Shown here: piece after piece, positions 7,985 to 64,000 of the stretch
Position numbering within the stretch: position 1 is the stretch's first letter
Layout: every line of letters begins with the position of its first letter
From: a virus
Lineage: Duplodnaviria; Heunggongvirae; Uroviricota; Caudoviricetes
Virus record (IMG/VR): IMGVR_UViG_3300031853_000008
Location: 1-64,000 of that record
Direction: 5' to 3' (one strand)
Length of the DNA stretch: 64,000 bases
Notes under the pieces: generated by a model
Database searches by the model: none
Told to the model about the DNA's origin: nothing
Seen by the model: the letters and a program-made list of their open reading frames with translations, nothing else
Position numbers and translations under genes: made by a program

Positions 7985-8191
7985 TTATGTAGCAGCGGTG
8001 CCAGGTTATGCTCCCGGTCTGTGGACTTCAAAGGCCCCTTTGCTACTATTACAACACACCGCCGCATTAATTTGGCGTGACCTACGAAGGCTCTGAGCGC
8101 CCCGGCAGGACTGTTTAACTGGCTGTTATGACGCTGGCTCAGAACTACATCAAATTGGGAACTCTCATACTCCCCGCACCAGTACCAAATA

Positions 8192-15695: not shown

Positions 15696-15753
15696 AACTT
15701 CCTCTCTTCCTTGTGTATTCCAACAGTTACTATAATGAACCGCAAAACGGTTA

Positions 15754-16850: not shown

Positions 16851-17000
16851 TCCAAGGGTTCATGTCTTGCTCGGAATCTTCCATATCCCCATCAACTCTG
16901 ATTCCGCAATAATCGCATTCCCAATGCCCGAATCTATAAGCCATTACAATTCCGCATTCCGGGCAATATACTTTGTTCTGCATAGACATCACCCCGCATT

Positions 17001-17366
17001 CTACTTACAGGATTTAGTCAGATAATCTTCTATATTGTCCCAAAGACCAGTACTACAATATCCTTTAATGCTTTGTGCATCTTCCAGTTCGATAACTGTC
17101 ATCAATGCGTAATTTGCCATGTCCATCAATGTATCCCGGATACTTTCATCCCCCGAATCAACCGAATCATTCTTTGCCAGATTTACAAGCCTGTTATATT
17201 TATCTGATATTCTTGTAACGGCGGACATAAGCCCCAATGATTTATAAGTCCTTGAAAAACTGTCACCGTATGCTTTGTTTTTTTGTATATATGTTTTGTG
17301 TAACTCGTCACACAATATTTTATGTTTCTCTGTTTTTGAAACCATTTCTATAATCCTCCGTTTCAT
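17001..17366 (-). CDS. hypothetical protein (121 aa)
   Basis: ORF. Confidence 0.4.
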   Translation of the reverse strand: MKRRIIEMVSKTEKHKILCDELHKTYIQKNKAYGDSFSRTYKSLGLMSAVTRISDKYNRLVNLAKNDSVDSGDESIRDTLMDMANYALMTVIELEDAQSIKGYCSTGLWDNIEDYLTKSCK

Positions 17367-17886
17367 TTTTATAGTTCTCAGATCCTATGAATCCGCAACA
17401 TCTCATTTCCGGGCAAAATCCTCTGTATTCACATTCCGGCACCATACAATCGGCAAGTTCAGGCTCGACCGTGCGGACAGCCTCTACAACCGCCCTCCAA
17501 GCCCCTCTCGTCTCGTTTGCGGCCTGACTGCATAACCTCTTCCTGCTTATATTAATAAGCGCCTGTGCGTTCGCTAGGAGTGTCAGACAGACGCTTGCGT
17601 TCTGTGGGAGGTTATTTCTATCTATTCCAGTTCTATCGGTTCTCTCTGTTGAGACGTATGGAGTCACCCCGATGTGGTGGCGCACTAGATGCATTGCCAC
17701 CCAGTAAGGAATATCATGGATTCTTATCGTCAACTCGATATACCTTATAGGAGAATGCTCTGCTCTAAGTATCTTACTCTTCCATGTAGAGGAAGGATAC
17801 TTTCCTGTTTCCTTCCCCACGGTATTCATGGCGGCGTTTTTCACTTCCTGCCAATGGTCTTGATAGTTCAAAATCTCTACGTTCAT
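17320..17886 (-). CDS. thyX: flavin-dependent thymidylate synthase ThyX-like (short)
   Basis: AEHSPIRYIELTIRI ... RHHIGVTPYVSTER resembles the ThyX signature. Confidence 0.5.
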   Translation of the reverse strand: MNVEILNYQDHWQEVKNAAMNTVGKETGKYPSSTWKSKILRAEHSPIRYIELTIRIHDIPYWVAMHLVRHHIGVTPYVSTERTDRTGIDRNNLPQNASVCLTLLANAQALINISRKRLCSQAANETRGAWRAVVEAVRTVEPELADCMVPECEYRGFCPEMRCCGFIGSENYKNETEDYRNGFKNRET

Positions 17887-19922: not shown

Positions 19923-20187
19923 CCTTGCTACCCTCGGTTTCCCGATATTTATTAGGGGAGTAGACTATACCATTATCTCAATGAGATACCCATTGGTAGT
20001 CGTTGCAAGCTTTCCATTTAAGGACTATCTCTCAGGATTATCAAATCCTCAATCTTGTTACCATACTGTGGTGATTAGCCACACCGCGCTTCAGTTTCCT
20101 TTGCGTTTGGTAATTGAGGCTCTAATGACTTCCCCTGATATTCTGGGTTATTCAATACGGATCGCTCCGTAAGGCGACTATAAGTTA
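19923..20187 (-). other. group I intron (265 nt, no ORF) in dnaE
   Basis: Begins with TAA directly after exon 1 ...SLPD (last nt U) and ends in G. Contains GACTAC / P8 hairpin / TATAGTCTAC (P7-like). Removal restores SLPD-IDMN. Confidence 0.5.
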
Positions 20188-21498
20188 ATCGGGCAATGAT
20201 CTTGTTTTTAATATACGAACTTCGCTAAGAAAACGATCTGGGTAGAGTTTTACAGGAGATGTAAAACGGTCAACACTAGAAAATCCTAACAAAGAATTAA
20301 TGTAATACGATACCGCACTTCCTCTTCCTGTCTTCGTAATAACCCCGCCGTATTCTTTGCCGCGCTTAACCAACTCATAATCCAATAAGAAATAATCTGA
20401 CATATGAGTATTTATTACAGCGTTTAACTCATACTGAATGCCATCCTCGTATTCCTTCCATCTTGATGGATCAACGTGCTGCTTTTCTTTATCCCATGCA
20501 TCATAAATAATCGACTTTAACTTATTATCTTTCCATTCCTGTGACTTCCCTGGATACAGAGTTGGCAGCTTGATATCTTTCCCAAATGTGATATCATCAA
20601 AAGTTAAGATGATATCCGATGCATCAAGCATTTCATCTATCTCAGCTTCATTAAAAACACCCTGTTCGATTAATCTCTGCTTCGCCGTCTCTCGGTCGGG
20701 GTAATCCATGTACCACCCGACTTCATCCTCGTCATAAGTAAATCCGCGCCCCTCAAGATAATTATCTCTCTCAACGCTATCGGATTCATATATGTAGTGG
20801 CTGTCTAATCCGACAATCCATTTAATTCCATACTTATAATGTAACTCTTTTATGTGTTTATTAATATCTTTCTGTCTGTCTGTATTATGGCACTGGGTTT
20901 CCAAATAGAAACTGTCCCCAAAGTGTTTCCACAGCTTCATCGTAATATCATCAATGTCTTCGTACTGCCAGTACTTCACACAGGCCGTGGTTACCATCAC
21001 ATCTTCCGGCTTCAGTTGCTCTAACAACTCAAGATCAACTCTTGCCTGTCCGTAATATCCAGTGATATTTGCTTCGGAGAGGATACTATTTATCTCTCGC
21101 CGCCCCTGTTCATTCCGGGCCAGTAAGATAATGTGGCAGTTCGCCCTGTCTTTGCGGTACTTGGTTTCCGTGTTCCCCTTCTTATCGGTAACAGTATAAG
21201 GATATTCCTTTTGTCTGTCTTTTACCCAATAAGCTTCTGCTCCAAATACAAATTTTTGTTTTTGTTTATTATATTGTTCTTCCGTAATGTCGCCAATATC
21301 TAATCGAGCCTTAAGCTTTTGATTGAAATCGACGACGCTGTCATAATAAACATAATAGTTTGATTGAAAACCATGCTCTACAGTGCTAACTACTTGGCTT
21401 CCGACCTCAACATTTCTCTGGATGTACTTTTCAGGGGCAGTAGCGCAATCAATTACACAGCAGTTAGAAAACCAACTGTGTTTATGATAATTCTGCAT
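20188..21498 (-). CDS. dnaE: DNA polymerase III alpha (DnaE-like), exon 1 (PHP domain and first palm segment)
   Basis: HKHSWFSNCCVID..VEHG PHP motifs and GRGSAVSYYINS palm segment. Start 21498 with GGAGG RBS. Confidence 0.65.
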
Positions 21499-22261
21499 CC
21501 TCGTCCTCCATCTCTTTGTATAGGCAATCATTTCTAAAAGAACACAACCTATTACACCATAGGAACGATTTCTTAGCGGCAAATTCCTGGTCATTCTCGA
21601 TAAGATTTATTGTTTCAAGCACCCAGTTTTTGGTTTCTTCGCATTCATCTTCTCTATAGGGGATCTCTGTAATTGCTCCCTTATCAAGAAAATGATTCCA
21701 CGCAAGAGATTGTGCAGAAATACCGAATTTCTGTTTGACCCCCATAGCGTAAATGTAAAGTTGCTTTTTGTAATCGTTAAACTGATCAAGTTTACTCTTC
21801 AGCGGGGTGCCGTCTTTCTTTAGAAAATGACCACTACTCTTATGATCCACTATAATAGTCTCACCATTATTTTTATCCTCGATAATTAAATCAACACGCC
21901 CAATTATTTCATTTCCGTTCAGTTCAAACTCAACTGGGATCTCCGTCCCTAAAACTTTAAAATTTGCAAAAAACTTATCGATATCAAGAGTATCCAGGTA
22001 ATCGATAAATTGATCCTGTTTCGCAAGTACTTTTTCGATATCCGTATCTTCCGGGACTTCGGCTAAGAGATTATCAAGAGTATTCTGTTTTGCTTGCTCT
22101 ATTGTTTCTTTCCCAGAAAAAAGCATCTATAATTCATTATGGCAAAAGCTCCCGACAGCAGCCTGAAAGTTCTTTTCCTCGTACTGTTGTTCAACCTTAT
22201 GTAAATAATAGGCATATGGGCATTGTCTGTATTGGCTTAAACTACTGAAAGAATACTGCAT
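21482..22261 (-). CDS. PD-(D/E)XK Cas4/RecB-like exonuclease with in-frame TAG at 22127..22129
   Basis: N-terminus MQYSFSSLSQYRQCPYAY (44 aa, strong AAGGAGG RBS), then TAG followed immediately by ATG, then the D..EDK nuclease core and C-terminal CxxCxxxxxC. The N- and C-terminal Cys form the expected 4-Cys cluster only if TAG is read through. Confidence 0.55.
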
Positions 22262-24926: not shown

Positions 24927-25568
24927 TTATCCTTTCTTTGCGGGGATTTTTCTAAGCCCCATAAGTTTGGTCTTGACGGATTTAAGCTGGTCTTCATTAT
25001 CACATGACCTATAATTTCCGCCTGTCTCTGCACCAATAATTTCCTCGATGACTTTAAGAAGATCATCATCGGTAAATCCTGATTTTTTCTTTGCGATATA
25101 AATTTTGTCAATTTCCTGGATGTACTTCTGTACATTTGCTGTCGCTTCTGGAATATCTTCGCCTTCGTAAAGATAAAGCCCGATGCCACCACAGCATGCA
25201 CATGCTTTTGCAAGGCAACGCTTAAAAGATTTATTTGCATCGCTTGACGTAATAGCTTCCGCCGCAATCGGTTTGTTCTTATAATCAAGGATAGGCAACG
25301 ATTCTGTCTGTGATACATCATTAATCGTGACCTTAACCTTTACCCAACCAGTGCGGCCGTCATCAAACCAAGGTCTGCTCCGAATCGTATTTCCTTCTGT
25401 ATCGGTCTGAATTACTTGCTCAAGCAATTCATACTTCGCATTTGGAAATCTCTTTTTGACTTCAGCCCAGGAAGCAGCCCACGGGGCATAAGATAGTCCG
25501 TTCTTCTGCTTCACCTTGGCAGACATATCAACGCTGTATAAATCTTTGAAAAAATTTGTTTCTGCCAT
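24927..25568 (-). CDS. Rad52-like single-strand annealing protein (Sak/DUF1071-type)
   Basis: LSYAPWAASWAE ... KACACCGGIGLYLYEGEDIP resembles the Rad52/Sak family. Confidence 0.4.
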   Translation of the reverse strand: MAETNFFKDLYSVDMSAKVKQKNGLSYAPWAASWAEVKKRFPNAKYELLEQVIQTDTEGNTIRSRPWFDDGRTGWVKVKVTINDVSQTESLPILDYKNKPIAAEAITSSDANKSFKRCLAKACACCGGIGLYLYEGEDIPEATANVQKYIQEIDKIYIAKKKSGFTDDDLLKVIEEIIGAETGGNYRSCDNEDQLKSVKTKLMGLRKIPAKKG

Positions 25569-26043: not shown

Positions 26044-26061
26044 GAGATTCTCCTTATATAG

Positions 26062-26133
26062 TCACCCGGTGGGGATTCGAACCCCAGTCTTGAGGGTTAG
26101 GGCCTCTCGTCTTGACCACTCGACTACCGGGCG
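26062..26133 (-). tRNA. amber suppressor tRNA, anticodon CUA (reads UAG); charged amino acid unknown
   Basis: 72-nt cloverleaf: acceptor CGCCCGG/CCGGGTG, U8A9, D arm GTCG..GAC, T arm TGGGG-TTCGAAT-CCCCA, discriminator A. Anticodon arm GAGG/CCTC with loop CCCTAAC puts CTA at positions 34-36. Position 33 is C rather than U. Confidence 0.6.
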
Positions 26134-28274: not shown

Positions 28275-28297
28275 AATCAGTATCCTTTCATTGTAAG

Positions 28298-28410
28298 GAG
28301 GGCAGTGTGGGTTCGAACCACAAACATCGCCTTTCAAGAGGAAAATGTTTTGCTGTTAGCACCTATACAAGATGCGTATTTTCGTGCTCTACCATTGAGC
28401 TACTGCCCTC
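28298..28410 (-). ncRNA. Y-RNA-like tRNA mimic
   Basis: Perfect acceptor stem with G-1 (gAGGGCAG/CTGCCCT), U8A9, D arm GCTC-AATGGTA-GAGC, T arm TGTGG-TTCGAAC-CCACA. In place of an anticodon arm there is about 63 nt of extra helices. Lies 23 nt upstream of rsr. Confidence 0.5.
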
Positions 28411-34602: not shown

Positions 34603-35565
34603 TTAAAACAGATCGTTCATAATCTTTGCTGCATTTGTCCGCTTCGTTTTATCGACTTGAGCATATCTCTTAGTACTGGCAATATTGTTATGTCCAAGCA
34701 CTTGAGCCACAAGATAGATATCTCCTGTCTTCTGGTAAAGATTTGTTCCACATGTGCTTCTCATTTTATGTGGGGTAATTTTTTTCCCAATACACTTAGT
34801 TGATTCTTTAAGCATATTTGTAACAGTAAACGTAGTAATCCTCTTCTTTGTTACTGGCGTTAAAAACAATGCGTCTGTATCCTCTTTTTCCATCTTATCA
34901 CGAACTTCAAGCCATTTTCTTATATAATTTATGGTTTTCCTTCCAAGATATACAGTTCTTTCTTTATTTCCTTTTTCGACTACCGTAATTGACCCATGCT
35001 CAAGGTCAAGATCCGCAACATTTATCTCGACAATTGACTCAACTCTCAGCCCAGTAGTGCAGCCAAGACTGAAGATAGCCAAATTTCTAGCAACAAGATT
35101 CCGTCTTGAATTCTGTGCGATAACACTCTCAACTTGACGCACTTCATCTGGAGTCATGAAAACTACTTCCTTCTTATTATTTGGATGAGGAGTGTCGGCA
35201 TCATCACATGGGTTTTCCGTGATGCATCTCATTTTCTTCTTGAGAAATGTATAAAAACTTTTTACCGCATAGAACTTCTGATGGGCGGACCCATTTCCGC
35301 TTCCGTTATCTTTTAAGTAACTAATATAATCATCAATGTCACTCGGAAGAATATCTTTATATGTATCAATAGAATTGATATCATATCCGTTCTCTTCAAG
35401 ATATTCTAGATAATGCCATACAAAAAACAGATAGCGGTACTTAGTGCTTTTCGTTTTGCTATTGAAAGATGAATTAGCGTATCTGATTAGCACATCTGGC
35501 TTGCCATCGAGAAGATTGTTTATCATCTCATCAAATTTTGCATCATGTTCTTCTCTTCCTGTCAT
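34603..35565 (-). CDS. int: tyrosine recombinase/integrase
   Basis: R..HxxR..Y catalytic signature (TGLRVES, HKMRST, LGHNNIASTKRYAQV). Confidence 0.75.
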   Translation of the reverse strand: MTGREEHDAKFDEMINNLLDGKPDVLIRYANSSFNSKTKSTKYRYLFFVWHYLEYLEENGYDINSIDTYKDILPSDIDDYISYLKDNGSGNGSAHQKFYAVKSFYTFLKKKMRCITENPCDDADTPHPNNKKEVVFMTPDEVRQVESVIAQNSRRNLVARNLAIFSLGCTTGLRVESIVEINVADLDLEHGSITVVEKGNKERTVYLGRKTINYIRKWLEVRDKMEKEDTDALFLTPVTKKRITTFTVTNMLKESTKCIGKKITPHKMRSTCGTNLYQKTGDIYLVAQVLGHNNIASTKRYAQVDKTKRTNAAKIMNDLF

Positions 35566-39150: not shown

Positions 39151-39259
39151 AATTTACTCTCCTATCTTAAATACTGAATACGTTGCGTCCTTGCACCAAC
39201 CAAATCTGGTTTCAAGTACTTCCCATGCTGTTTCGTCGGCTTCAAACTCTGTTTTGTAC

Positions 39260-39520
39260 CTATGCCCTCTGTAAACAACATCTCCGTTCCAATCCATTTT
39301 CTGTGAGCGTACAATTATATGCTTCGAAGTACATCAGTTTCTTCTCAAATGATTCCCCATCACCGTTATCGATATCTGCCGACATATTGTAATATCTGTC
39401 ATGTGGTCGCATCTTGCTCGGACACAGTGTTACTGGAAGTCCTGCATCATACAGCATCTTCGCTTCGCTTTTTTGCACCCGGTACATACAATTCACTCTA
39501 ATTCTATTCATTTCTCCCAC
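39260..39520 (-). CDS. hypothetical protein
   Basis: ORF. Confidence 0.35.
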   Translation of the reverse strand: MGEMNRIRVNCMYRVQKSEAKMLYDAGLPVTLCPSKMRPHDRYYNMSADIDNGDGESFEKKLMYFEAYNCTLTENGLERRCCLQRA

Positions 39521-51206: not shown

Positions 51207-51404
51207 ATGAGAATCAGAATTTATCCACTACATCATTACAATGATGACCTTTATGATGAGTGGTCGGAGAAAGCCGATGGAATCACTGACTACACAATCA
51301 ACAAGAATAATTTTGTTGTGCGTAGAGGCGACCAGTGGATGGGGATTTACAACCTTGATGACATTTCAAAGATTATTGTATCGGATGAAAAGGTGAATGA
51401 ATGA
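51207..51404 (+). CDS. hypothetical protein (66 aa)
   Basis: ORF trimmed to MRIRIYPL. Confidence 0.35.
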   Translation: MRIRIYPLHHYNDDLYDEWSEKADGITDYTINKNNFVVRRGDQWMGIYNLDDISKIIVSDEKVNE

Positions 51405-51496
51405 GTGAATACGGACTAAAGATACGAAACTACTCTGCTGCTCCGCTGTATATGTACAATCAGGGGGTGCGGGATCATTGTGACTACAAATAGGCG

Positions 51497-53158
51497 ATGT
51501 TGTGTAATTCTTTATTTCTTACGTTTCTGAAGAACAATGGACTTAAAAATTATAAGGATATTTCTACCAGGGACGTGATATGTATTGATTTCGGGTTTGG
51601 GACGAGATCGTACGATGAAGAGTACTCTCATATCAAAAAAATGCTTCAAAGTGCCGAAGAATCTGGGAATGATGAAAAAATCACAAAAATGAAGGATTTA
51701 TTGGCAAAAACAATCAAAAATAAGTCGAAATTTAAGAAAATTTCGAAAGAAAACCTTAGAATTTTGATGTATGAAAACGGCATTGATGTGACCTATAAGG
51801 GGTTTGGGGATGACTCAGATGAAAAGATTCACTATAAGATGTTGGAGAGAAATGCTTCCCATGCCAAAGTTGGGACTGTAATCTTCATCAATTCTGAACT
51901 TTATGATAAAGCCTATAACTGGTTAAGTATGGGAATCAAGTTGCCGAAGAAAAAGGCTAAAATCGTTGAGATGTCGGCATATATGCCATTGACAACTTCG
52001 ACGATAGTCGGCACCGTTCACATTCCTGTACAGGATATTTTAATCTTAAAGGATTATGATTCGTTCTATAAAACAGTTGCGGATGTGATTAAACCTAAAA
52101 AAGGCGATAACGGCAAGATGATGTGCTACGTGTCAAGAGAGGATACGGAAGTAAAGAATACTCTGTGGGACGGGATGGCACTTATTGAGTCCTCGATTCT
52201 GCCCGGATACTGTAATGGAATGGCGTTGCTGAGAAACCATTTTTTCAAGGCTTGTGCGTTTAAGACTAATATCCAGCTGTTCTTCCATGATTACTGCGAC
52301 AAACACGGAATTGACTATGAAACTTATCAGATTACCGATATGTTTGGATACAGGCATTATTTAAAAGATATCAAAATGATAACGACAGATAATGCTATTA
52401 AGTGGAAGAAATTTATCTCTCTTATGGGGAACAGCCCTACTGAGGCGTATGGCTACTGGTGCGAAAAAGTTAGAGCGGATGGGGAAGAATGGGGAATCGT
52501 AAAGACAGACCACCCAAGCAAACTTAGTTATATAGGGAACTATAACAGAATGAGTTACCAGATGCTCAATACTCTCCCGACCACTTATGAAGATGTAGGC
52601 AAAATAGCTTCTACAAGCATTAAATATGTAGAAGATATGAAAAACAACAATGATATTTACGAGAAGTTTCTGCGAGAGAATGCCACGGCAGTCAATCATT
52701 ATGAGATGTTGGCTGACCTATACAAACAGAATAAAGAGTTCGCAAGAAGCGTTATGTGGAAACGAGACAAAGCGGATATCATCCGGCATTATGTCAACAA
52801 TCTTCGCAAAGGGAAGATATTCGTTAGAGGCGATAATCTGACGCTTTGTGGAAATCCATATGCTCTACTGCTTTACAGCATGGGGGAAGCTCCTGAGAAT
52901 GACAAAACGCTGTTACATGAGGATGGAACTATACAGTGTTACACGAAACAGTTTGAAGATGGTGAGTATTTGTGTGCTTTTAGATCCCCACAGAATTCAG
53001 CAAACAATATAGCATATTTTCATAACCACTACTCTCCCGAAATGGAGAAGTATTTTGATTTTAGTAAAAATATAATTGCTGTTAATTGTATTGGGACTGA
53101 TATTCAGCCTCGGATGAACGGCTCAACAATCGGGGCCAGTTGTGCGGAAACGCACTTC
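51497..53158 (+). CDS. large protein of unknown function, exon 1 (554 aa)
   Basis: ORF ends at TAA, the first codon of a group I intron (the same arrangement as in dnaE). Confidence 0.5.
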
Positions 53159-53436
53159 TAAAAATATTCGGTGAAAATTGGAAAGCTGACAATGCCAGCC
53201 AATCAATTACCAAGCCAGTGAATATCAGAAAGTAGCTGGAAGGTTTAGAGACTAGGGGTTGAGGAGATACCCAATAACACCCCCACGAGTGCCGAATACC
53301 TTAACACATAATGGTGAAGGTAATGAGATAGTCCGATACTCTTAGGAAACTGAGAGCTGCCGTGGATAAAGAGCCACGGACATAACAATATGGCGATTTT
53401 GACAGCGATTTTGTTTTTGCAACTAACCAACAAGAA
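53159..53436 (+). other. group I intron A (3' boundary approximate)
   Basis: R element GGTTTAGAGACTA at 53243-53255, S element GAGATAGTCCGA at 53325-53336, P9-like hairpin CCGTGG..CCACGG. Confidence 0.55.
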
Positions 53437-53700
53437 ATGGTAAAGGGTTCAAAGATTGCATATAGAGATTTCCCAACGGTAGTGAATGCTATCCCTGAAA
53501 GTGGGTTGACATATGACAATACTCCAGATTCGTATGCACTTATGGATAATCGCTTTGCCAAGAGCCAACGTGCGATAGGGGAATCATCGAATTTGGCGAT
53601 GTTGGCAGTAACATATTATTTAACAAACATTGCGAATAATATAAACAATGAACAAACCAAACAATTGTATGATATTTCAGTAATTCTAGCAGTATTGGCT
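53437..53700 (+). CDS. large protein of unknown function, exon 2 (about 88 aa; 5' boundary lies between 53386 and 53440)
   Basis: ORF bracketed by two group I introns. Ends at TAA, which begins intron B. Confidence 0.4.
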
Positions 53701-54061
53701 TAATTAACTGGGCCGGTCGCATAGAAATATGCCCCATAAAATATCCTGTGAATTTCTGGAAAGCTAAGAGTAAATGACTATGAATAAAGAACCTATGAAG
53801 ATGCCATTAGTAAACCGATATGAAAAATATAAATTGTAGTTATTTACTTATGCTAATCAGAAGCCAAGCCACTAAATCCTGTAGAAGTAAGTGGAAGGTT
53901 CAGAGACTAATCGGTGAGAAGGGGATCAATATCCGAACACGAGTGCAGGACACCTAAAAGATATTCTCAAGGTGATGATATAGTCCGATCTATAGGGAAA
54001 CCTATTGAAGCAACAGATAAATAGCTGTTGATGTAACGACAAGCAGTGCAGCATAGATAGT
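53701..54061 (+). other. group I intron B (3' boundary approximate)
   Basis: Q-like AATCCTGTAG, exact R element GGTTCAGAGACTAA at 53898-53910, S element GATATAGTCCGA at 53976-53988. Confidence 0.55.
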
Positions 54062-54730
54062 GTGAAAAGGGTCTATTCTGTAGATACTATGGACGAGATT
54101 GCAAGAATCAAGTCTCTTCCATGTATGGCTAGAACTACTGTAATTGATGGTAAGGAAGAACGCAGTGATTTTCCACTCTTCTTTCGATACACAAGAGATG
54201 TGCCTGTAACGAAGAATGGGAAAGAACTTCCATATGAAGACATCAAAACTGGTCGGCAAAAAGTTACGAATCGTATTAATGAAGACCTTGTTTGCCCGAT
54301 GAATTATCTTGAATCGTGGCTTGATAAAATTCAAGGCGCTTCCAAGACAAAAGATATACCAAATGAGAAGTTTCTGCGGAAAATTCCAGCCAATAGGAGA
54401 AATTCCGATTCTAAAAAGGTTGGTGAAATCCGAAAGATGATAGAGACATACGCATATTATCTTTATGATCACAGAGAACTTTTCAGTACATCTGAGGGAT
54501 TCGAAAAAGTTGTGGAGAAAACGGACGAACTTACAAATGCGATTAGAGGAATGAAGATTAATCTCGCAACCACACATAGACTTATACAGATTGCATTTGG
54601 AATCAATATAAATGATGATTCAAGGGATGTAACTGTAAAGTCTAATAAAATAGGGCGGAAAATCCTTATTATCCTTTATCATAGTAATCCAAAAGCTTTC
54701 TTAAGTTGCTTTGTAAAGGGTGAATGCTGA
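54062..54730 (+). CDS. large protein of unknown function, exon 3 (about 222 aa; 5' boundary lies between 54032 and 54090)
   Basis: Open frame continues from within the intron's 3' end. Confidence 0.4.
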   Translation: MKRVYSVDTMDEIARIKSLPCMARTTVIDGKEERSDFPLFFRYTRDVPVTKNGKELPYEDIKTGRQKVTNRINEDLVCPMNYLESWLDKIQGASKTKDIPNEKFLRKIPANRRNSDSKKVGEIRKMIETYAYYLYDHRELFSTSEGFEKVVEKTDELTNAIRGMKINLATTHRLIQIAFGININDDSRDVTVKSNKIGRKILIILYHSNPKAFLSCFVKGEC

Positions 54731-55212: not shown

Positions 55213-55398
55213 ATGGTTCATATTACAAAAGATGAAGCATTTTATCTTAGAAAATGCGGTCGTGGAAAGGATATTCATATGTCTTCGAGAACCCACCAGA
55301 ATAGAAAAAGATATTGGGCAACCGAGTCGTATAAGACAATGAAATATCTTGACGGATACAGGGAAGAACAGCTTCGGGCAGGACAGACAAATGATTAA
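55213..55398 (+). CDS. hypothetical basic protein (62 aa)
   Basis: ORF. Confidence 0.3.
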   Translation: MVHITKDEAFYLRKCGRGKDIHMSSRTHQNRKRYWATESYKTMKYLDGYREEQLRAGQTND

Positions 55399-55522
55399 AT
55401 TCTATGACACGAATGCCATACTGAAGTTACAGGAAAAGATATTCGATGAAGAATTCTGGATTTCTACTGTAACACTTGAAGAGCTTTAGAATATAAAGAC
55501 CCAGAAAAATAAATCAGAGGAC

Positions 55523-56569
55523 GTGAAGTATGCCGCTAGAAAGATGGTAAGACTTCTTAATTTGAATTATGGAAAATACTGGAAAATCGTAAATAATGAT
55601 AGTCATTATGAGTTCGGTGCGGACGAGAGGATATGTAAAGATGCGGATCGTGTGAATAAAACGAACGGCCCCATCCAGTTTGTGACATATGATCTTTGTT
55701 GCCGAGTAATTGCGGATGGCAAATACGATTTGAATCCATATTATCCTGATAATAGTGGGGAGTCTATTTATAAAGGTTATAAAGAATTTGTCGGGTCTAC
55801 GAATGATATTAACACTGCTATCGAGAATATTAATCTTGATGATTGGTATATGAATGAATATCTGATTGCAGTGCCGACAGATGGTGGAAAGCCGTTTGAA
55901 CTCCGATATAATGGAGAGGAATTTGTTCCACTTCGCCTCCCATCATCGAAATTTATTAAAGGGAAAAATGCTCTTCAGAGATGTGCGTTGGATATGCTTG
56001 CAAACCCGAACATCACGATATGCGGTGTGCTTGGAAATTATGGTTCGGGTAAATCTTATCTTACGATGAGAATGGGGCTTTACTCTGTTAGAGAAAAAGG
56101 ATACCAGTCTAAAATCGTTGGAGTAAGAGAATACCGCGGAGAAGGCGAAGAAATTGGGTTTCTTCCTGGAGAAAAGGAAGCGAAGTTGAATGACTTCTTT
56201 CTGCCACTAGCACAGCAGCTTGATGGCGGGGAATTCGAACTCGAAAGCATGAAGCAACGCGGGGAGATTGAAATCAATACCCCATTTTTTATGAAAGGTA
56301 CTACATATGATAATTCTATCATACTTGTAGATGAAGCCGAAGATTTGAAAGAGAAACAGATAAAACTTATTGGAACGAGAGTTGGTCAGAATGGGCGGAT
56401 CTTCTTTAGCGGAGATTATAAACAGTCCTTGATCTGCGATAATGAGAATAATGCATTGGTGCGGACTTGCAACACCCTTAAGGGCAAGCCTGAATTCGCA
56501 TGCATTTATCTCGATGACGATGTTCGTTCCGATACAAGCAAGATTTTTGCGACATTATTTGAGGATTAA
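55523..56569 (+). CDS. phoH: PhoH-like ATPase with N-terminal extension
   Basis: Walker A GNYGSGKSY. Conserved GFLPGEKEAKL..FLPL PhoH segment. Confidence 0.7.
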   Translation: MKYAARKMVRLLNLNYGKYWKIVNNDSHYEFGADERICKDADRVNKTNGPIQFVTYDLCCRVIADGKYDLNPYYPDNSGESIYKGYKEFVGSTNDINTAIENINLDDWYMNEYLIAVPTDGGKPFELRYNGEEFVPLRLPSSKFIKGKNALQRCALDMLANPNITICGVLGNYGSGKSYLTMRMGLYSVREKGYQSKIVGVREYRGEGEEIGFLPGEKEAKLNDFFLPLAQQLDGGEFELESMKQRGEIEINTPFFMKGTTYDNSIILVDEAEDLKEKQIKLIGTRVGQNGRIFFSGDYKQSLICDNENNALVRTCNTLKGKPEFACIYLDDDVRSDTSKIFATLFED

Positions 56570-56817: not shown

Positions 56818-57471
56818 TTGGATATTGAAACTTTTACACTTCCTCTTATTGGAAATACAAAGTAGAGTGAAATTCCGTCTCCTGAGGAGTATACATATTG
56901 GAAACTTCGTAGCAACCGGGTATTCACAATTGATTATGAAATTGATCAAGATTACAGTCTTATTGAACTCAGTAAAGCTATCATGCAACTGAATTTTGAG
57001 GAAAGGGATATTCCGAAGGAAGAATTAAAACCGATTTATATTCTTATCCATACTTATGGGGGTGATATTGATCAGGCTTTCTATTTTGCGGATATGCTTA
57101 TTAGTTCTAGAATCCCTATCGTGACGGTAGGTCTTGGAGCTGTAATGTCGGCTGGGTTTATCATTTTTCTTGGTGGGCAGAGACGTTATGCCTTTAAGCA
57201 TTGTCAGATGCTTGTCCATAAAGGAAGTGCAGGATTTTCCGGCACCGCTCAGGAAATGGAAGACTTTCAAGCAAATTATAAGAAACAGCTGAATGACATG
57301 AGAACGTATATTCTTGAGAGAACAGATATCGATGAAAAGGTCTTTAACAGGAACAGGAACAAAGATTGGTATCTGCGGCCTAATCAACTGACTGAATATC
57401 ATATTGTTGATAAGATTATTGACAATTTTGATGACATCACTGATGACAAGGAGGGAAAAGAAGATGCTTAA
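56818..57471 (+). CDS. ClpP-family serine protease (likely prohead protease) with in-frame TAG at 56863..56865
   Basis: TTG start with AAAGGGGGA RBS. After the TAG the frame encodes the ClpP N-terminal strand region (RVFTIDYEIDQDYSLIELSKAI) before the conserved LIHTYGG..GLGAVMSAG..HKGSAG core. Confidence 0.55.
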
Positions 57472-57655
57472 GGTTAAAGACTCACAGCCGAAACCATCGA
57501 CCCCGACTAGAACGATTACGGTTAATACAGTGAACCTTAATAATGGGGTTCTTGAAGATGAAGACGGTCCCATTATTGACAGGATTATTGATTCTCTCCC
57601 TGAGAACGCCACGGATTTTACTGTAAAGGTAATGATTCCGCTTAATGAGACATAA
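57464..57655 (+). CDS. hypothetical protein (63 aa)
   Basis: ATG overlaps the end of the ClpP-like gene. Confidence 0.4.
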   Translation: MLKVKDSQPKPSTPTRTITVNTVNLNNGVLEDEDGPIIDRIIDSLPENATDFTVKVMIPLNET

Positions 57656-57758
57656 GGGGGATAAACCATTGGGCTATTCATATGATAAGAGAGACGATTA
57701 GAATGAACTCCAGTACATTTGGCGGCTCTGCCATTCAAAGGATGACGGATTAATTGAC

Positions 57759-58874
57759 ATGACGTGGGTCGAACTTGCGGATGTCATGAACCGTAATCTC
57801 CGGGAAGACGGTCAGTATTGGTCGGAGTCAGCTTATCGGAAGAAATATCAAGAAGCGAAAGCTTTTTATGATGAAGTATTTTCTAAGCAGACGAGTGATG
57901 ATGAGTCCTCTTCTCTCATAAACGAGAGACATGAACTTGAAAAGGAAACCGTGCGAGTTCGTGACGAGAGGAATGAGCTTCGCCGACTGCTTAGAGAACA
58001 AGCCCGGAATGAATCCTTTATAGATCAGCTGGTAAGGATGATTAAAGAGCATACCACTCCAGAAATGGATACAGGAGATATTCCTGTAATAAAAGATGAA
58101 GGGATTAATGCTATGCTCGTCCCTATCACAGATATCCATACTGGGATGAATTCCGATAATTACTGGAATTATTTTGATGACGATGTGCTTGAAGCGAGAT
58201 TGAGTGATTATCTTACAAAGGTTGTAGAAATAGGGAAAAGGCATAATGTGTCTTACGTTCATGTAGTAATTTCTGAAGTTATTTCTGGATATATCCACCC
58301 GACTCTTCGCATCGAATCGAATAAAGATGTTATAGAACAGTTTCTAACTATCATGGATTATCTTACTCAGTTTCTGATCAAACTGAATAAAGAATTCCCC
58401 CATATTTATGTATATTGCGTTCCGGGCAATCACAGTCGGATGACTCCAAACAAGAAGGAAAGCGTTGAACATGAGAATATTGATATTCTTGCTATTCCTA
58501 TGTTGTCTGCGAGATTACAGAATTATCATGGAATCGAGTTTGCAACGAAAGATAATGAGATCGATTCTTCAATAATCAAGTTCTGGGTCAACGACAGACT
58601 TGTATTGGCCGTGCATGGAGATAAAGATAATCCTGATAACATGGTAGAAAAGCTTACTATGATGGTAGGTATTCAGCCGGATATTATCCTTTGTGGGCAT
58701 AGACACACAAATGGGGTAAAAACGGTTTATGATACAAAGATTATTCAATCTGGGTCATTATCGGGTACAGACCAGTATTGTGTTGATCACAGATTGAAGA
58801 ATCGTCCAGAGCAATTCGTTGCCGTCGTTGGAAGCGATGGCGTGGATTGTCTTTATGATGTCAAGTTTGATTAA
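57759..58874 (+). CDS. SbcD/Mre11-like metallophosphoesterase with N-terminal coiled coil
   Basis: ITDIHTG, CVPGNHS and GHRH phosphoesterase motifs. Confidence 0.6.
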   Translation: MTWVELADVMNRNLREDGQYWSESAYRKKYQEAKAFYDEVFSKQTSDDESSSLINERHELEKETVRVRDERNELRRLLREQARNESFIDQLVRMIKEHTTPEMDTGDIPVIKDEGINAMLVPITDIHTGMNSDNYWNYFDDDVLEARLSDYLTKVVEIGKRHNVSYVHVVISEVISGYIHPTLRIESNKDVIEQFLTIMDYLTQFLIKLNKEFPHIYVYCVPGNHSRMTPNKKESVEHENIDILAIPMLSARLQNYHGIEFATKDNEIDSSIIKFWVNDRLVLAVHGDKDNPDNMVEKLTMMVGIQPDIILCGHRHTNGVKTVYDTKIIQSGSLSGTDQYCVDHRLKNRPEQFVAVVGSDGVDCLYDVKFD

Positions 58875-58878
58875 CATT

Positions 58879-58974
58879 AAGACCCGAACAGCAAATTTAC
58901 AGGATAAATTATGATGACATTGAACGGATATGAACTTGGTTCGTCCCCGTTCTTTCCCTTTTTTGGGTCTTGCG
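58879..58974 (+). promoter_or_regulatory. conserved leader element copy L1 upstream of the late operon
   Basis: TTAAGACCCGAACAGCAAA ... TTTTTTGGGTCTTGCG. The termini match L2 and L3 and are mutually complementary. Confidence 0.4.
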
Positions 58975-58997
58975 CCATGATTAAGGAGGGAAGCTAT

Positions 58998-60052
58998 ATG
59001 GCTTTTTTGAAAAAAGTCCTGCCATAGCAGGAAATGAAAAGGCTTACCCTCAAGCCCCTAAGAGAACAATATACTGCTTTGGGGTAGGCTTATAACAAAA
59101 TTATGAATTATGAACTTCCTTATTGTGTCAAATGTGGGACATTTGGAAGTGCTACTCTCTTCTATCAAGATAGCAGATTTGCGAATGGGTATTTCCCTAT
59201 TTGCAAAAAATGTATTATGAAAATGGTATAGAACAGATAGAAGGATGATGATGAACCACACGAAACGAAGGAATCCGTTGCTAAAGTATTGAAAATGATG
59301 GATCTTCCGTTCTTGGAAGACCTTTATGATTCTTGTGTAAAGGCTATTGAGGACGGAACTGAAAAGCGAGGGTCTAAATCTTCGTTTATTAATTATGTGT
59401 CCGCTATCCGTTCTCTCCCACAGTATCATCGTTTAACGTGGAAAGATTCTGATTATATTTCCCAAGAGAAGGAAATTGAGAACGACGCTGATAATGAGGA
59501 TATTCTTGAAAAAGCGAGAGAACATTTTGGAACAACTTATACTAATCAAGATTTGAAATTCCTTTAGACTCAATATGAAGACTGGACTGCCAGATATGCC
59601 TGTGAAAGTAAAGCACAGTAGATTTTGTTCCAGAGGGTATGCTTTATCCAATTAGCACTGGACAAGGCTCAAAAATCTGGGAAAGAAACGAAAGATCTTG
59701 ATAAACAGCTTCAGGATGTGTTGACATCGCTTCAGATTAAACCTAATCAGAGTAACTCTAATGCTCTTACGGAAGCAAAGACGTTTAGCCAGCTTATTGA
59801 GAAGTGGGAAGCTTAGAAACCTCTCCCTGAAATATAGGATGATTTTAAGGATGTTGATCATGTTGGGAGATATATTGATGTGTTCTTTAAAGGACATCTA
59901 TCCAAAATGATGGGGCTTAAGAATGCGTTTTCTTCTATGTATGATAAATTCATGAAAAAATATACTGTTAAGAAGCCGGAATATGATGAGGATACCGACT
60001 CTGAAGAATTGTTTGATAAAATATTTGGCAATCCTGTGGAGAATAGGTCATG
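58998..60052 (+). CDS. late protein with N-terminal zinc ribbon (candidate small terminase subunit); 8 in-frame TAG codons
   Basis: ATG with TTAAGGAGGG RBS. A single frame runs 58998 to 60052. Every interruption is TAG and the final stop is TGA. Confidence 0.45.
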
Positions 60053-60115
60053 AGTGACGCTAAGAAATCTGTTAAATAGATAGAGAAAACCAAATAGCGT
60101 AAAATAATGTAGACG

Positions 60116-61813
60116 GTGGCTTGGAGAGCAAGCTACTATCGTGAAAATCCTCATCGATTCGTTTCTGAAGTATTATTCCCAGATGGAACTTTTAAGTTGA
60201 AATTGTTTCAAAAGATTCTTCTTTGGGCAATGATGCACTACAACTTTATTATGTACTTGGCGGCGCGCGGCCAGGGGAAAACGATGATAACTGCGTTGTT
60301 TTGTGTCGTGAGATGTATCTTATATCCGGGGACAAAGATAATTGTAGTAAGCGGTACGTTGAAACAAGCGAATGAATTGCTGTTAAAGATACAAGATGAA
60401 TTTATGCCGAAATCACCATTCCTATGTAATGAAATATAGTCTTGTAAAATTGGGCAGAATGACGCATCAATTTATTTTCGAGGAAATTCATGGATTAAAA
60501 CTCGCACAAGCACTTAGAACTCTCGTTCCGCAAGAGCAAATATTCTTATAGCGGATGAGTTTCGCATGATAGATTAGAAGATATTGAACACAGTTCTTCG
60601 AAAGTTTCTGACAAGCCCTCGTGAACCTGGATATTTGAATAACCCAGAATATACTCATTTAAAGGAACGCAATAAGGAAATTTATATGAGTTCTGCGTGG
60701 TTTAAGTCATCTTGGGCATATGAAAAGGCTATTGGATATACTAAGAATTTTTTCGATGATACAAAGAAATATTTTATCTGCGGGCTTCCATATCAGTTAT
60801 CTATTATGGAGGGCTTGCTTATGAAAGAACAAGTGCAGGATGAGATGAGCTAGCCGGATTGGAATGATTTATTGCAGTCGATGTAGATGGAATGCACCTG
60901 GATAGGTGATGTTGGAGATAATTTATTTCATTTTGATGATTTCAATAATAGACGGGTATTGAAGAGTTCTTTTCTTCCATTGAAATATTATAATGATAAT
61001 AGAAAAGTGCCATAGCCTCATTCAAAAGGGAAAAGGGTATTATCTCTTGATGTAGCTTTAATGAAATCATCAAAGTCTAAAAAAAATGATGCCTCAGCAT
61101 TATTCATTAACGATCTTACACCATCTACTAATACGAGTTATCATTCAAATATCGTTTATGCTGATACATTCGAGGGGTTAACAACTGACTAGCTTGGCTT
61201 AATTGTGATGAGATATTTTTATAAATATAAATGTACTGATTTAGTTATAGATACCAACGGTATCGGTTTAGGTGTCTATGACTTTTTATGTCGTGATCAA
61301 TATGACCCATCGACTGGGGAAACCTATCAAGCTATGACTTGTGCTAATGATCCAGATATGGCTGAGAGATGTCGTGTATAGGGGGCTAACAAGGTTATTT
61401 GGAGTGTAAAAGCAACCGCTTCATTTAACAATGATATTACTATTTTGCTCCGTAATGCTATATTAAATGGACGGATTAGCTTTCTTATATCTTAGGATGA
61501 TGCGGATGAGCCACTCAAAGATAAGCTTAAAGGATATGCAAAGCTGACCCCAACGGAACAAGCATTGTTAAAGAAACCTTACGCTCAGACAACTATGACA
61601 GAGTATGAACTCATAAAACTCAACCACTAGGTAAAGAATGGCAATATTAAAGTTTATTAGAGTTCTGGAATGCGCAAGGATCGCTACAGTTCATTATCGT
61701 ATAATTATTGGTGTGCGACTCAGCTTGAACTTAAGCTACGACCTAAAGAGTCACACGACAAACTTATCAGTTACTTTCCGATAAGGAAAGCAAGAGTTTA
61801 TAAATCATTTTAA
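60116..61813 (+). CDS. terL: terminase large subunit; 11 in-frame TAG codons
   Basis: GTG start. Walker A AARGQGKT, Walker B ILIADEF, nuclease-domain motif VIDTNGIGLGVYD, C-terminal KDRYSSL. One frame throughout, with interrupting stops only TAG (60437, 60515, 60575, 60851, 60884, 61013, 61184, 61379, 61493, 61628, 61658). Terminates at TAA. Confidence 0.75.
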
Positions 61814-61825
61814 GGAGGTGCATGA

Positions 61826-63376
61826 ATGCCACAAAATAGTGATAAGGTGTCAACTGCACCTACTAAGAAACAGCCTACTTCTGCGGAACTTCGCAAATGG
61901 TATGCGAATTATTCAAAGAAACAATAGAATTTTGATTCTATGAAAAATGCTTTGAAACGGCTTACTGATATTACGAAAAGTAGAAAAGAAAGAACTATTA
62001 ATACATTCTCAAAAGAGGATCTCAGAACTTATCTGAGAAATATAAGTTCCAGTGAAAAGCAGTTAAGAAATCTTTCGAGATATCTGTACTACCGTTCTCA
62101 TAGTTATTATAGAATCATTAACTATTATGCCAATATGTTTGACCTAAAAGCAAGGTCGGTTATTCCTACATATGATTTCACAAAAAATAAACAGGATGCG
62201 AAGAAGGTCACAAAACAGTTCTATACGACTTTGACTTATCTAGATCAAATGAACCTTCAGTATGAGTTCCTTAAAATATATCTCACTTGTTATAGGTAGG
62301 ATGTATTCTATGGTTGCCTGTACTGGGATGATACCGACTTCTTTATTCTCCCGTTGGACCCGGATTTTTGTAAAATTTCTGGCGTTTATGGGACAGGAGA
62401 CTTTTCATTCGCTTTCGACTTCTCCTATTTCAGAAATAGACAGGACGTTCTCGAATACTGGGGTGAGCCATTCCAATCTATGTATAACACATATGAGAAT
62501 GATACCACCAACAATAGGTGGCAGGACTTCCCGGAAGAATACTCTGTTTGCTTGAAAGCAAGGGCATAGGATTGGCAGACCGTAGTGCCCCCGTTCTCAG
62601 GGCTTTTTAATGAGATTATCAATCTTGAGGATCTGAAAGATATTCAGGCGGTGGCAGATGAGTCGCAGATTTACAAGCTTCTCTGGTTCGAACTTAAAAC
62701 CATCACAGGGTCGAAAGATGTTAATGATTGGGCGGTTGATCCAGACCTTGCTTTGGATTATTACGATAAACTTCAGAATGAGATTCCTGAGTGGGCTGAT
62801 GTTGCGATGGTTCCTGGGGAACTCAAGTCTATCGAGTTCAATCAAGACCAGGCGGATGATACAAACAAGGTATAGAAAGCTACTGAAAGTGTATTCAATA
62901 CTTCCGGCGGAGCGCAGATTCTTAATGCTGCTTCTATCTCTGGGACAACAGCTTTTACTGCCGCGATTGCGTCTGATACTGAATTTGCCGTTTCTCTCCT
63001 GTTGCCACAGACTTAGGCTTGGGTGAATCGTATGCTTTCGTATAAGATGAATAACCCCGCAAAGGTGAAATTCTTTGAGATAAGCATCTATACGAGAGAT
63101 AAGTTAAGAGATGCTCTTCTCAAGTCGAGTCAGTTCGGGCTTCCAAATAAACTTGCCATTAATACCCTGTTTGGATATTCCGAGAAAGATACAATGGCGA
63201 TGAATTTCCTTGAAGAGAATTGCTTGCAAGTCAGCACTAAATTTACTCCACTCCAGTCTTCCTATACAAGGAGTGCGGATGTTGACACAGATTCTATTAC
63301 AGGGGGAAGACCATCTAGCACATAGATAACAGATGACGGTGAAGCAAGCAAAGATAAGAGGGATAATGCGAAATGA
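61826..63376 (+). CDS. portal/connector-like late protein; 6 in-frame TAG codons
   Basis: AAGGAGG RBS. Four listed ORFs (61940, 62354, 62585, 63023) plus flanks are all in frame 2, joined by TAG only. Terminates at TGA. Confidence 0.5.
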
Positions 63377-63549
63377 CGAAAAAGAATCTTTTTATCGTAA
63401 CAGATAATGCGGATACTGCTAATGAACTTCTCAATGAAGACCTTAAGCTTATTACATTTGAAGACGGTTATTGGTATTTTATTAACAATAATAAATTAAA
63501 TTTTGACGGGATGCAAGATGTCTCCTATACGGATATTTTGAGATTCTGA
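63373..63549 (+). CDS. small hypothetical protein (58 aa)
   Basis: ATGA overlap with the portal-like gene stop. Confidence 0.3.
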   Translation: MTKKNLFIVTDNADTANELLNEDLKLITFEDGYWYFINNNKLNFDGMQDVSYTDILRF

Positions 63550-63574
63550 TTCCGTCAGGAAGGAGAATGTCACC

Positions 63575-64000
63575 GTGAAGAGGATTCTTACTCTCTAGGA
63601 TTTAGTGGCTCTTTGTAGCTAGAATAAATTTTCTACATTTGATTCTGAAAAAGCTGGATTTCAGCTTTGTGTTCATGTCCCCGCGGTTTTCGAAAATACA
63701 GAATCTGACGAGCATACTCTGTATGGATATGTCAAACTTATGCATACGGGAAAAAACCGAAATGGTTCTAATCTAACAGAGGAGGCGGCAAAAAACTGCC
63801 TTTCTTCTATTGCATATAAGCCACTTCTTGCAGATTTTTGTGAAATTGATGGCGTAGAGGACTTTACTTCTCACGCTTTTCATGAAGATTAGGATGGAAA
63901 TATCGTATATGATGAGCGTCAAGTCGGAGCATTTACTGCTGACCCACCGGAATTAAAGGAAGATGGCGAGCATCCAGATCGCAAATATGTTTTTGCGAAA
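63575..64000 (+). CDS. late protein, 3' partial, at least 3 in-frame TAG codons
   Basis: GTG start with AGGAGA RBS. The frame continues to the window end through TAG codons only. Confidence 0.4.

Follow-up and report, generated by a model that had tools for sequence, protein, structure and literature searches.

Which amino acid does a phage assign to a stop codon once that codon has been turned to sense, and is the choice the same in closely related phages? This question is raised by a 64 kb stretch of DNA (40.7% G+C), positions 1 to 64,000 of the virus record IMGVR_UViG_3300031853_000008 (Caudoviricetes), which is referred to here as the window. An original prediction, made from the letters of the window, held that the genes at 58998-64000 can be read only if TAG is a sense codon. 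Recoding of stop codons in phage late genes is established, and the residue inserted is treated as fixed (TAG as glutamine, TGA as tryptophan) and has been built in that form into gene callers and databases. In the phage represented by the window, TAG is very probably read as glutamate, judging from the residues with which it aligns in homologous proteins, and a tRNA gene with the anticodon CUA in the early region encodes the candidate decoder. Amber recoding itself is already known; what is new is the predicted glutamate meaning, found beside glutamine-decoding sister phages and paired with a different suppressor tRNA.

Amber codons in the packaging and virion genes

The window carries minus-strand genes up to ~45 kb and plus-strand genes from ~46.5 kb, as read from GC skew and open reading frames (ORFs). 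Over 58998-64000 the late genes break up under the standard code, as first claimed, and the longest ORF is ~129 amino acids (aa). When TAA and TGA are taken as the sole stops, four frames are open on the plus strand (58908-60053, 60020-61813, 61826-63376 and 63542 to beyond the window end). None of the four genes contains an in-frame TAA or TGA, whilst their off-frames each hold 30-100 of these codons; the fragments of each gene share one frame and every internal stop is TAG, in agreement with the original prediction. Gene models, with starts set from alignment with relatives, are listed below.

58998-60053, plus strand: YonG-like gene directly upstream of terL, 8 TAG (59025, 59085, 59229, 59238, 59565, 59619, 59814, 59835), stop TGA
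60050-61813, plus strand: TerL, 587 aa, 14 TAG (60077, 60095, 60110, 60437, 60515, 60575, 60851, 60884, 61013, 61190, 61379, 61493, 61628, 61658), stop TAA
61826-63376, plus strand: portal, 516 aa, 6 TAG (61925, 62297, 62567, 62873, 63014, 63323), stop TGA
63373-63549, plus strand: small conserved ORF of 58 aa between the portal and YonD-like genes, no TAG
63575-64000, plus strand: N-terminal part of the YonD-like gene, TAG at 63596, 63620 and 63890

The counts for the YonG-like gene, the portal and the in-window part of the last gene are those given at the outset, as is the use of TAA or TGA at the true gene ends. For terL the earlier count of 11 was too low: the three additional TAGs (aa 10, 16 and 21) lie in an N-terminus that is conserved among 119 homologues. 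Retranslation with TAG as sense, followed by profile matching, recovered both TerL and the portal at full length, and both read-through products align end to end with >100 homologues each, running across the TAG positions without a change of frame or a TAA or TGA among the breaks; the TAGs do not mark borders between separate proteins. TerL, which had been described as a continuous terminase and proves to be one, matches Pfam Terminase_6N and PHROG terminases and possesses the predicted Walker A (GQGKT, aa 74-78) and Walker B (ILIADE, aa 165-170) motifs. Of the 516 portal residues, 27-514 are covered by the match to phrog_2739 (E=1.7e-93). The YonG-like gene, the end of which is joined to the terL start by an ATGA overlap, matches phrog_3314 (E=1.6e-56) and Pfam YonG_N/C (precomputed); it is a candidate small terminase, the name it had been given, on the strength of its position only, and its family, YonG, has no assigned function. 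The YonD-like gene runs past the window end, finishes at the window-equivalent position 65086 in locus L001 and holds 7 TAGs in full. Three PHROG families annotated as "unknown function" (phrog_15503, phrog_26582 and phrog_24618) match TerL at aa 6-221, 235-567 and 356-564, respectively; these families were probably built from standard-code calls on TAG-recoded phages.

An independent record of the same phage is present in the ENA, where contig ERZ27256883 k141_938339 (112,828 nt) shows 0 mismatches to the window over 13,951 nt and extends it by 7.8 kb; the same TerL was found on 3 contigs from two sources (ENA and Logan). In the 7.8-kb extension the virion module goes on with YonD, YonB (capsid), YomW and YomU (tail tube), each gene of the extension containing 0-9 in-frame TAGs. 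The Pfam families YonJ_N, YonG_N/C, YonD_N, YonB, YomW and YomU_Tube (precomputed) occur in the same order in L001-L006. Altogether the late genes contain 58 TAGs in 4384 codons, and 14/14 of those tabulated end in TAA or TGA. If TAG is Glu, it accounts for 17% of the Glu positions in the late genes overall and, in TerL as well as in a tail-module ORF, for 36-38%; YonB, the capsid gene, contains just 1 TAG. GAG codons remain beside TAG in the late genes.

The original prediction confined recoding to a subset of genes, which is borne out by the early region, and placed its start at 58998, which is too late. On the present gene models, recoding starts at ~51.4 kb and continues for at least 7.8 kb past the window end. 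The upstream genes affected, each with one TAG close to its N-terminus, are the following.

51401-54730, plus strand: conserved gene, phrog_8308-like, in three exons, TAG at 51491 (aa 31)
55391-56569, plus strand: PIN/PhoH-like gene (Pfam PhoH, precomputed), single TAG at 55487 (aa 33)
56818-57471, plus strand: ClpP-like protease gene, start codon uncertain, probable single TAG at 56863
57645-58874, plus strand: YonJ-like (metallophosphatase/exonuclease-like) gene, single TAG at 57699 (aa 19)

The phrog_8308-like gene has a conserved N-terminus upstream of TAG 51491, the column of which is E/D/D in relatives. Its exons (~51401-53122, 53395-53706 and 54044-54724) were located by tblastn with the uninterrupted 874-aa L002 protein, the pieces of which match in order, and group I introns are found at 53114-53356 and 53691-54007 on the plus strand (Rfam RF00028, 76 and 91 bits). 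In the PhoH-like gene VTLEEL-TAG-NIK aligns with VTLQELENIK and KTLEELEKIK, and the column is E in 4 relatives. Homology of the ClpP-like gene reaches upstream of TAG 56863, where relatives have D/D/N, and the TAG column of the YonJ-like gene, which matches phrog_284 and Pfam YonJ_N, is E in relatives.

The 76 early genes (13,901 codons) would hold ~184 TAGs at the late-gene rate, and 12 were found, all of them within a few codons of the beginning or end of a stop-to-stop frame. These 12 are cases of start ambiguity or genuine TAG terminators, and no early gene needs read-through; the sequence shows amber reassignment in the middle and late genes only. Three early ORFs on the minus strand (16989-17402, 7972-8361 and 39242-39520) terminate at TAG, with another in-frame stop (TGA or TAA) following 1-5 codons later, and such second stops would limit C-terminal extension once a suppressor tRNA is made. 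Within recoded genes TAG has a mean relative position of 0.40, compared with 0.51 for GAA/GAG (p=0.007), and the first TAG of a gene lies nearer the N-terminus than expected by chance (p=0.005). In the late genes from 57645 onward, together with the L001 extension, a purine follows 45/58 in-frame TAGs, compared with 173/278 GAA/GAG codons (Fisher p=0.03). Promoter and terminator scans returned counts not above those in shuffled sequence, and transcription units and their timing are not inferable from them.

Residues aligned with the amber codons

Homologues were collected with TAG replaced by X, giving alignments of TerL with 119 homologues (64-68% identity) and of the portal with 120 full-length homologues (52-65%). 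Glu is the consensus in 12/14 of the TerL TAG columns. At aa 268, 279 and 537 the column is E in 119/119 homologues, at aa 176 in 117/119 and at aa 527 in 116/119, and the peptide DEFRM[VI]DE, the most conserved of the family, has its last residue encoded by TAG in this phage. The six portal columns are less uniform (E 115/120, E 104/120, E 59, E 56, Q 99/E 20 and an S/A/E mix). A Codetta-style log-odds calculation over these 20 columns of TerL and portal gave +54.7 bits for Glu, -31.6 for Asp and -43.3 for Gln, a difference of +98 bits between Glu and Gln. This can be read against resampled sets of 20 columns from the same phage, in which the difference averages +106 at its own Glu codons and -104 at its own Gln codons, the maximum of the latter being -52. 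The phage's GAA/GAG codons fall on Glu columns and its CAA/CAG codons on Gln columns. Where TerL is most constrained, the distribution is the same: the 23 columns with at least 80% Glu are occupied by GAR (12), TAG (8), Asp (3) and Gln (0), and the 18 Gln-conserved columns include CAR at 11 and TAG at 0.

In the other late genes, TAG columns contain E 394, D 217 and Q 69 in multiple alignments and E 110, D 30 and Q 12 in pairwise ones; in the YonG-like gene, for example, aa 208 is E in 70/82 and aa 190 in 58/82. The share of Gln at TAG columns (~5%) is close to that at ordinary Glu codons (~6%). Counting TAG as Glu raises the Glu content of the late genes from 6.3% to 7.7%, the early genes having 7.3%. 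For the decoding of TAG, the original prediction had named code 15 or an assignment to Gln, Trp or Tyr; the alignments point to Glu, which was absent from that list. The database version of TerL (P0121) differs from the window TerL solely in having Q at each of the 14 TAGs, and the code-15 translation of this phage is, on the alignments, probably wrong at every TAG. A profile search with TerL found no solved structure on which the TAG residues could be mapped to catalytic sites.

The relatives of the phage provide a control for this approach. At least 12 of them, all within the same SPbeta-like clade, are recoded in the Gln sense; they include the closest TerL relatives (L002, L003 and L004) and further loci from a metagenome scan (L077-L081, L086, L096, L098 and L100). 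Like the window phage, they have the gene order PhoH, ClpP, YonJ, YonG, TerL, portal, YonD, YonB onward and carry TAG in TerL (61-69% identical) and in other late genes. Unlike those of the window phage, their TAGs fall on Gln-conserved columns, many of them Q 100%, so the method returns Gln where Gln is expected. The other relatives, including 67 loci of bacterial metagenome-assembled genomes (MAGs) or genomes, use the standard code in TerL. The signature "Q at invariant-E columns", by which code-15 calls on a further phage of the Glu type would be recognized, was not found in the 120 best homologues of TerL, in the 120 best of the portal or in 150 cluster representatives, and a megablast search with the window at 40-64 kb gave no match in GenBank phages.

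A switch from Gln to Glu in an already recoded ancestor was considered and found no support, as, of 9 TAG coincidences with Gln-type relatives suggested by pairwise alignments, 5 remain in multiple alignments, all 5 at variable columns. In L003 (ENA ERZ27291663 k119_221847), 3/15 TerL TAGs (aa 22, 157 and 261) lie on mostly-Glu columns (70-78% E), and two of the three coincide with TAG positions of the window phage; this pattern may hint at mixed decoding or may be due to chance, at columns that vary.

The suppressor tRNA and its predicted charging

A tRNA suited to reading TAG is encoded inside the TAG-free early region, among replication genes.

26061-26133, minus strand: suppressor tRNA with anticodon CUA, 73 nt, class I (ARAGORN; Rfam tRNA model, 56.9 bits)

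It folds as a canonical cloverleaf with a G18G19 D loop and a TTCGAAT T loop. The acceptor has C1-G72, G2.U71 and A73 and no encoded CCA, the D arm is GUCG-AGUGGUCA-AGAC, the variable loop has 4 nt and the anticodon loop is CC-CUA-AC, with C33 (26092-26098, minus strand). In its D arm the tRNA is identical at 16/19 positions to the tRNA-Glu(UUC) of relatives (GUCA-AGUGGUUA-AGAC), whose tRNA-Glu genes also share A73 and 4-nt variable loops; in the tRNA-Gln genes of relatives, the D stem reads GCC...GGC and residue 73 is G. The core determinants of the glutamyl-tRNA synthetase (GluRS) of Escherichia coli are U11-A24, a 13-22(:46) tertiary element, the absence of nucleotide 47, U35 and A37 (PMC9976931). 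All are present in tRNA(CUA), which has U11-A24, the non-Watson-Crick pair G13.A22 with A46, no nucleotide 47, U35 and A37. In the tRNAs of these phages the lack of nucleotide 47 has no diagnostic value, and when tRNA(CUA) is compared with tRNAs of related loci it is the D arm alone that points to Glu. C33 is also found in 4 other tRNAs (Ser, Ala and two Thr) of the 153 called in the window and fetched loci, and may be a trait of the tRNAs of these phages.

The suppressors found in four of the Gln-type relatives are built differently.

L004, 6458-6549: Gln-type suppressor tRNA
L079, 6663-6751: Gln-type suppressor tRNA
L080, 5674-5762: Gln-type suppressor tRNA
L081, 3878-3969: Gln-type suppressor tRNA

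These are 89-92 nt long, with a variable arm of ~20 nt, the loop CU-CUA-AA, a weak first pair and G73, in contrast to the 73-nt class I tRNA of the window phage with its loop CC-CUA-AC, C1-G72 and A73. Their architecture is class II-like although TAG aligns with Gln in the phages that encode them.

Together these features suggest a scheme in which the phage's own tRNA(CUA) would decode TAG in middle and late genes and insert Glu, making TAG a third Glu codon, whilst early and replication genes would keep the standard code and avoid TAG. The suppressor would have been derived from a tRNA-Glu-like scaffold by a single anticodon change, CUC to CUA (C36 to A), parallel to the codon change GAG to TAG, and would receive its Glu from the host GluRS. 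Variation at position 36 is tolerated by those GluRS enzymes whose substrates include tRNA-Gln. The fate of the charged tRNA would then depend on its acceptor end, as the conversion of Glu-tRNA to Gln-tRNA by bacterial GatCAB requires U1-A72 (PMC2811023). With C1-G72 in place of U1-A72, a glutamylated tRNA(CUA) would stay Glu and escape GatCAB and, we infer, glutaminyl-tRNA synthetase (GlnRS) as well. Since the outcome would be set by the tRNA scaffold, one clade could hold both Gln and Glu meanings. We favour, with moderate confidence, the whole of this proposal, namely that the window phage represents the first phage code with UAG as Glu, served by a tRNA-Glu-like suppressor that the host GluRS charges, that GatCAB and GlnRS do not recognize, and that has arisen within a clade that otherwise chose Gln.

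The restriction of TAG to middle and late genes may also serve as a translational gate, an idea proposed by Borges et al. for other recoded phages, in which late proteins would be completed only after the early-region tRNA has accumulated. The location of the tRNA gene, the lack of TAG in early genes and the usual position of the first TAG early in the gene all fit such a gate, and aborted products would be short where the first TAG is near the N-terminus. An integrase gene suggests that the phage is temperate, a lifestyle in which the silence of late genes matters.

Searches for further examples of the tRNA gave few leads. Neither blastn against GenBank phages nor an exact-core pattern in IMG/VR found a match to tRNA(CUA), and a synteny search returned one IMG/VR relative of the tRNA-adjacent DUF2828 gene, the tRNAs of which differ. 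A looser pattern retrieved two unrelated 73-nt CUA tRNAs that have a Glu-like D arm (GUUU-AGUGGUYA-RAAC) and a 4-nt variable loop.

L008, 4539-4611: CUA tRNA, also with G1-C72 and A73 (IMGVR_UViG_3300049811_000196, 82.6 kb)
L009, 9976-10048: CUA tRNA (IMGVR_UViG_3300015615_000196, 362.6 kb)

These may be further Glu-type suppressors; the fetched loci contain no late or recoded conserved genes. A theta/HDV-like ribozyme following tRNA(CUA) is unlikely, as the ribosome-binding site and ATG of the next ORF lie ~20 nt downstream and Rfam finds only tRNAs.

Several observations weigh against a glutamate code of this kind. The assignment of Glu is drawn entirely from homologue alignments, which have Lys/Arg at two of the TerL TAG columns and mainly Gln at one of those of the portal (Q 99/120), and the typing of TerL TAG columns in 100 loci revealed no second Glu-type genome. 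The anticodon (U34, C36) and acceptor (G1-C72, U2-A71) determinants of GluRS are absent from the tRNA, which has C34, A36, C1-G72 and G2.U71. The first pair is not that of tRNA-Glu, and C34 and A36 both depart from strong anticodon determinants of the E. coli enzyme; C34 is natural in tRNA-Glu(CUC), one such tRNA being present in a relative, and A36 is needed to read UAG. C33 replaces the near-universal U33, and over the whole tRNA the similarity to 147 tRNAs of related loci is ~50-70%, with Asp, Asn and Glu ranked together. In addition, genes for a synthetase, a release factor or another suppressor could be located in the ~40 kb of the contig that lies outside the data; the part of the window ORFs that was scanned yielded neither an aminoacyl-tRNA synthetase nor a release factor.

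The most obvious competing explanation is an ordinary code 15, in which TAG is Gln as in the crAss-like and Lak phages, phAss-1 and the close relatives of the window phage itself. All documented TAG recoding in phages of standard-code hosts is to Gln (Borges et al., Peters et al., Babkin et al.), and the Q 99/120 column of the portal and the Q at all 14 TerL TAGs of P0121 accord with it. Nevertheless, this is improbable for the present phage, where Gln scores -43 and Glu +55 bits over the 20 columns, TAG occupies 0/18 Gln-conserved and 8/23 Glu-conserved TerL columns, and Gln would displace an invariant Glu at no fewer than 5 TerL positions; the tRNA (A73, C1-G72) is also unrelated to the Gln-type suppressors (G73, weak first pair). 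A mixture of the two residues would result if the tRNA were glutamylated and then partly amidated, or if two enzymes charged it. Bacteria lacking GlnRS make Gln-tRNA from Glu-tRNA by one shared pathway (PMC2811023, PMC9976931), and a few TAG columns are Gln or variable. Such ambiguous decoding has no better a chance than code 15, given that Gln is as rare at TAG columns (~5%) as at ordinary Glu codons (~6%), that C1-G72 lacks the U1-A72 determinant of bacterial GatCAB, and that a mixture at invariant Glu sites would waste many TerL molecules.

Assignment of TAG to some other residue is more doubtful still. ARAGORN labels the tRNA "Pyl", as it does any tRNA with a CUA anticodon, and tRNA-Pyl has an architecture that differs from the canonical cloverleaf. 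The G18G19 D loop, TTCGAAT T loop and 4-nt variable loop of tRNA(CUA) are canonical and not tRNA-Pyl-like; no pyl genes occur among the scanned window ORFs and the TAGs fall on Glu columns. Aspartate is the second commonest residue at TAG columns, and the tRNA with the best whole-length similarity is a tRNA-Asp, yet Asp scores -31.6 bits compared with +54.7 for Glu, and the tRNA has A73 rather than G73, a main determinant of aspartyl-tRNA synthetase (AspRS; supported by PMC9976931). Least credible of all is that TAG is not translated, the interruptions reflecting a decaying prophage, an artefact of sequencing or assembly, or misread modified bases. The source is indeed a metagenome assembly, but the late genes combine 58 TAGs with zero TAA or TGA in 4384 codons, whereas their off-frames are full of both, and there are zero frameshifts. 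Moreover, the TAGs lie on conserved acidic columns and are matched by a suppressor tRNA, GAG persists beside TAG in late genes, neither the early genes nor the two strands show any other abnormality, and the identical protein occurs on the 3 contigs from ENA and Logan.

Related systems, the phage and its other loci

A literature search found no report of TAG-to-Glu recoding in a phage. Only TAG-to-Gln and TGA-to-Trp have been seen in phages whose code differs from that of the host (Borges et al.), the former having been established from alignment (Borges et al.; Babkin et al.) and from proteomics (Peters et al.). The theta-ribozyme preprint predicts Gln, Trp, Ile and Tyr as suppressor isotypes, and annotation tools assume table 15; Glu is named in none of these papers. 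The crAss-like, Lak and Garnet/Agate/Topaz phages of the gut (Borges 2021/2022; Peters 2022; Yutin 2021) resemble the window phage in having TAG in late, structural and packaging genes, early genes compatible with the standard code, a tRNA(CUA), TAA/TGA stops and a proposed late-gene gate. They differ in that their TAG corresponds to Gln both in alignments and in mass spectrometry, whilst that of the window phage aligns with Glu, and in lineage, the window phage being an SPbeta-like siphovirus of Bacillota. The human-gut siphovirus phAss-1 (proposed Phassvirus; ~136 kb; Babkin et al. 2023, PMC10607447) has TAG in 41 ORFs and, like the window phage, has TAG in TerL and portal and tRNA-Sup-CTA genes. 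Unlike in the window phage, its TAG is assigned to Gln by alignment and tRNAscan isotype (PMC10607447), and phAss-1 was not among the matches of the window portal in the GenBank phage set.

The structural genes themselves have familiar counterparts. SPbeta and large siphoviruses of Bacillota (the Bacillus vB_BanS_Sophrita group and Lactococcus 949-like phages) share YonJ, YonG, YonD, YonB, YomW and YomU with the window phage, have portals that are 26-32% identical to its own, and likewise contain many introns and homing-endonuclease insertions. In the isolates examined, by contrast, these genes have no in-frame TAG and the portals are annotated as single ORFs.

UAG, together with UAA, means Glu in the eukaryotic nuclear codes of peritrich ciliates (table 30) and Blastocrithidia (table 31), and to our knowledge UAG-to-Glu is otherwise confined to eukaryotic nuclear codes. 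The codon-amino acid pair is the same as that proposed here, as is the one-step logic by which CUC becomes CUA and GAG becomes UAG. Those codes, however, are cellular and genome-wide and include UAA, whereas that of the window phage would be virus-encoded, restricted to a subset of genes and to UAG, and used in a host that presumably has the standard code.

If the glutamate reading is correct, the amino-acid meaning of a recoded stop would be evolvable between sister phages, and the identity of the recoded codon would depend on which tRNA scaffold was mutated rather than on a general property of host synthetases. Sister phages would then provide a natural Gln/Glu contrast for suppressor identity (recognition by GluRS versus GatCAB or GlnRS). 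Automatic code-15 translation would mistranslate such phages at every TAG, with 1-2% of the residues in their TerL, portal and capsid-module sequences, invariant Glu among them, being in error. Proteomes called with code 15 can be screened for "Q at invariant-E columns", and more cases may emerge in this way. The 73-nt tRNA is a naturally evolved candidate for a Glu-inserting amber suppressor, with possible use in the genetics and synthetic biology of Bacillota.

The phage is ~113 kb or larger and SPbeta-like, and its host is placed broadly among gut Bacillota. Its best TerL match is on a Faecalimonas MAG contig (67%), the others being mostly in Clostridia/Bacillota bins, and integrated copies occur in Thomasclavelia and Coprobacillaceae isolates. 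Other genes recognized in the window include the integrase, which makes a temperate lifestyle probable, and an annealing protein, as follows.

34603-35565, minus strand: tyrosine integrase (phrog_1, E=1.7e-40)
24927-25568: Sak-like single-strand annealing protein

Other genes on the minus strand lie in pieces or carry insertions. The gene for the anaerobic ribonucleotide reductase NrdD (12755-15797) is split into an N-part (14442-15797) and a C-part (12755-13747), and the insert of ~0.7 kb holds an ORF (13841-14347) like an HNH/NUMOD homing-endonuclease ORF of L006. The insert is probably an intron with a homing endonuclease; Rfam finds no intron there. A DNA polymerase III alpha-like gene (17883-21594) consists of two ORFs ~220 nt apart, 20185-21594 (PHP, N-terminal) and 17883-19964 (fingers, HhH), and could be split or contain a small unrecognised intron. 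Two tRNA-like genes, 4248-4338 and 28297-28409, have insertions in the anticodon arm (Rfam, 37 and 42 bits); with introns allowed, ARAGORN reads them as Ser(ACU) and Lys(UUU), with inserts of 6 and 33 nt, respectively, the anticodons being tentative. A restriction-modification pair lies at 10016-12108, also on the minus strand, and comprises an NgoFVII-type endonuclease (10016-11062) and a C5 cytosine methyltransferase (11059-12108).

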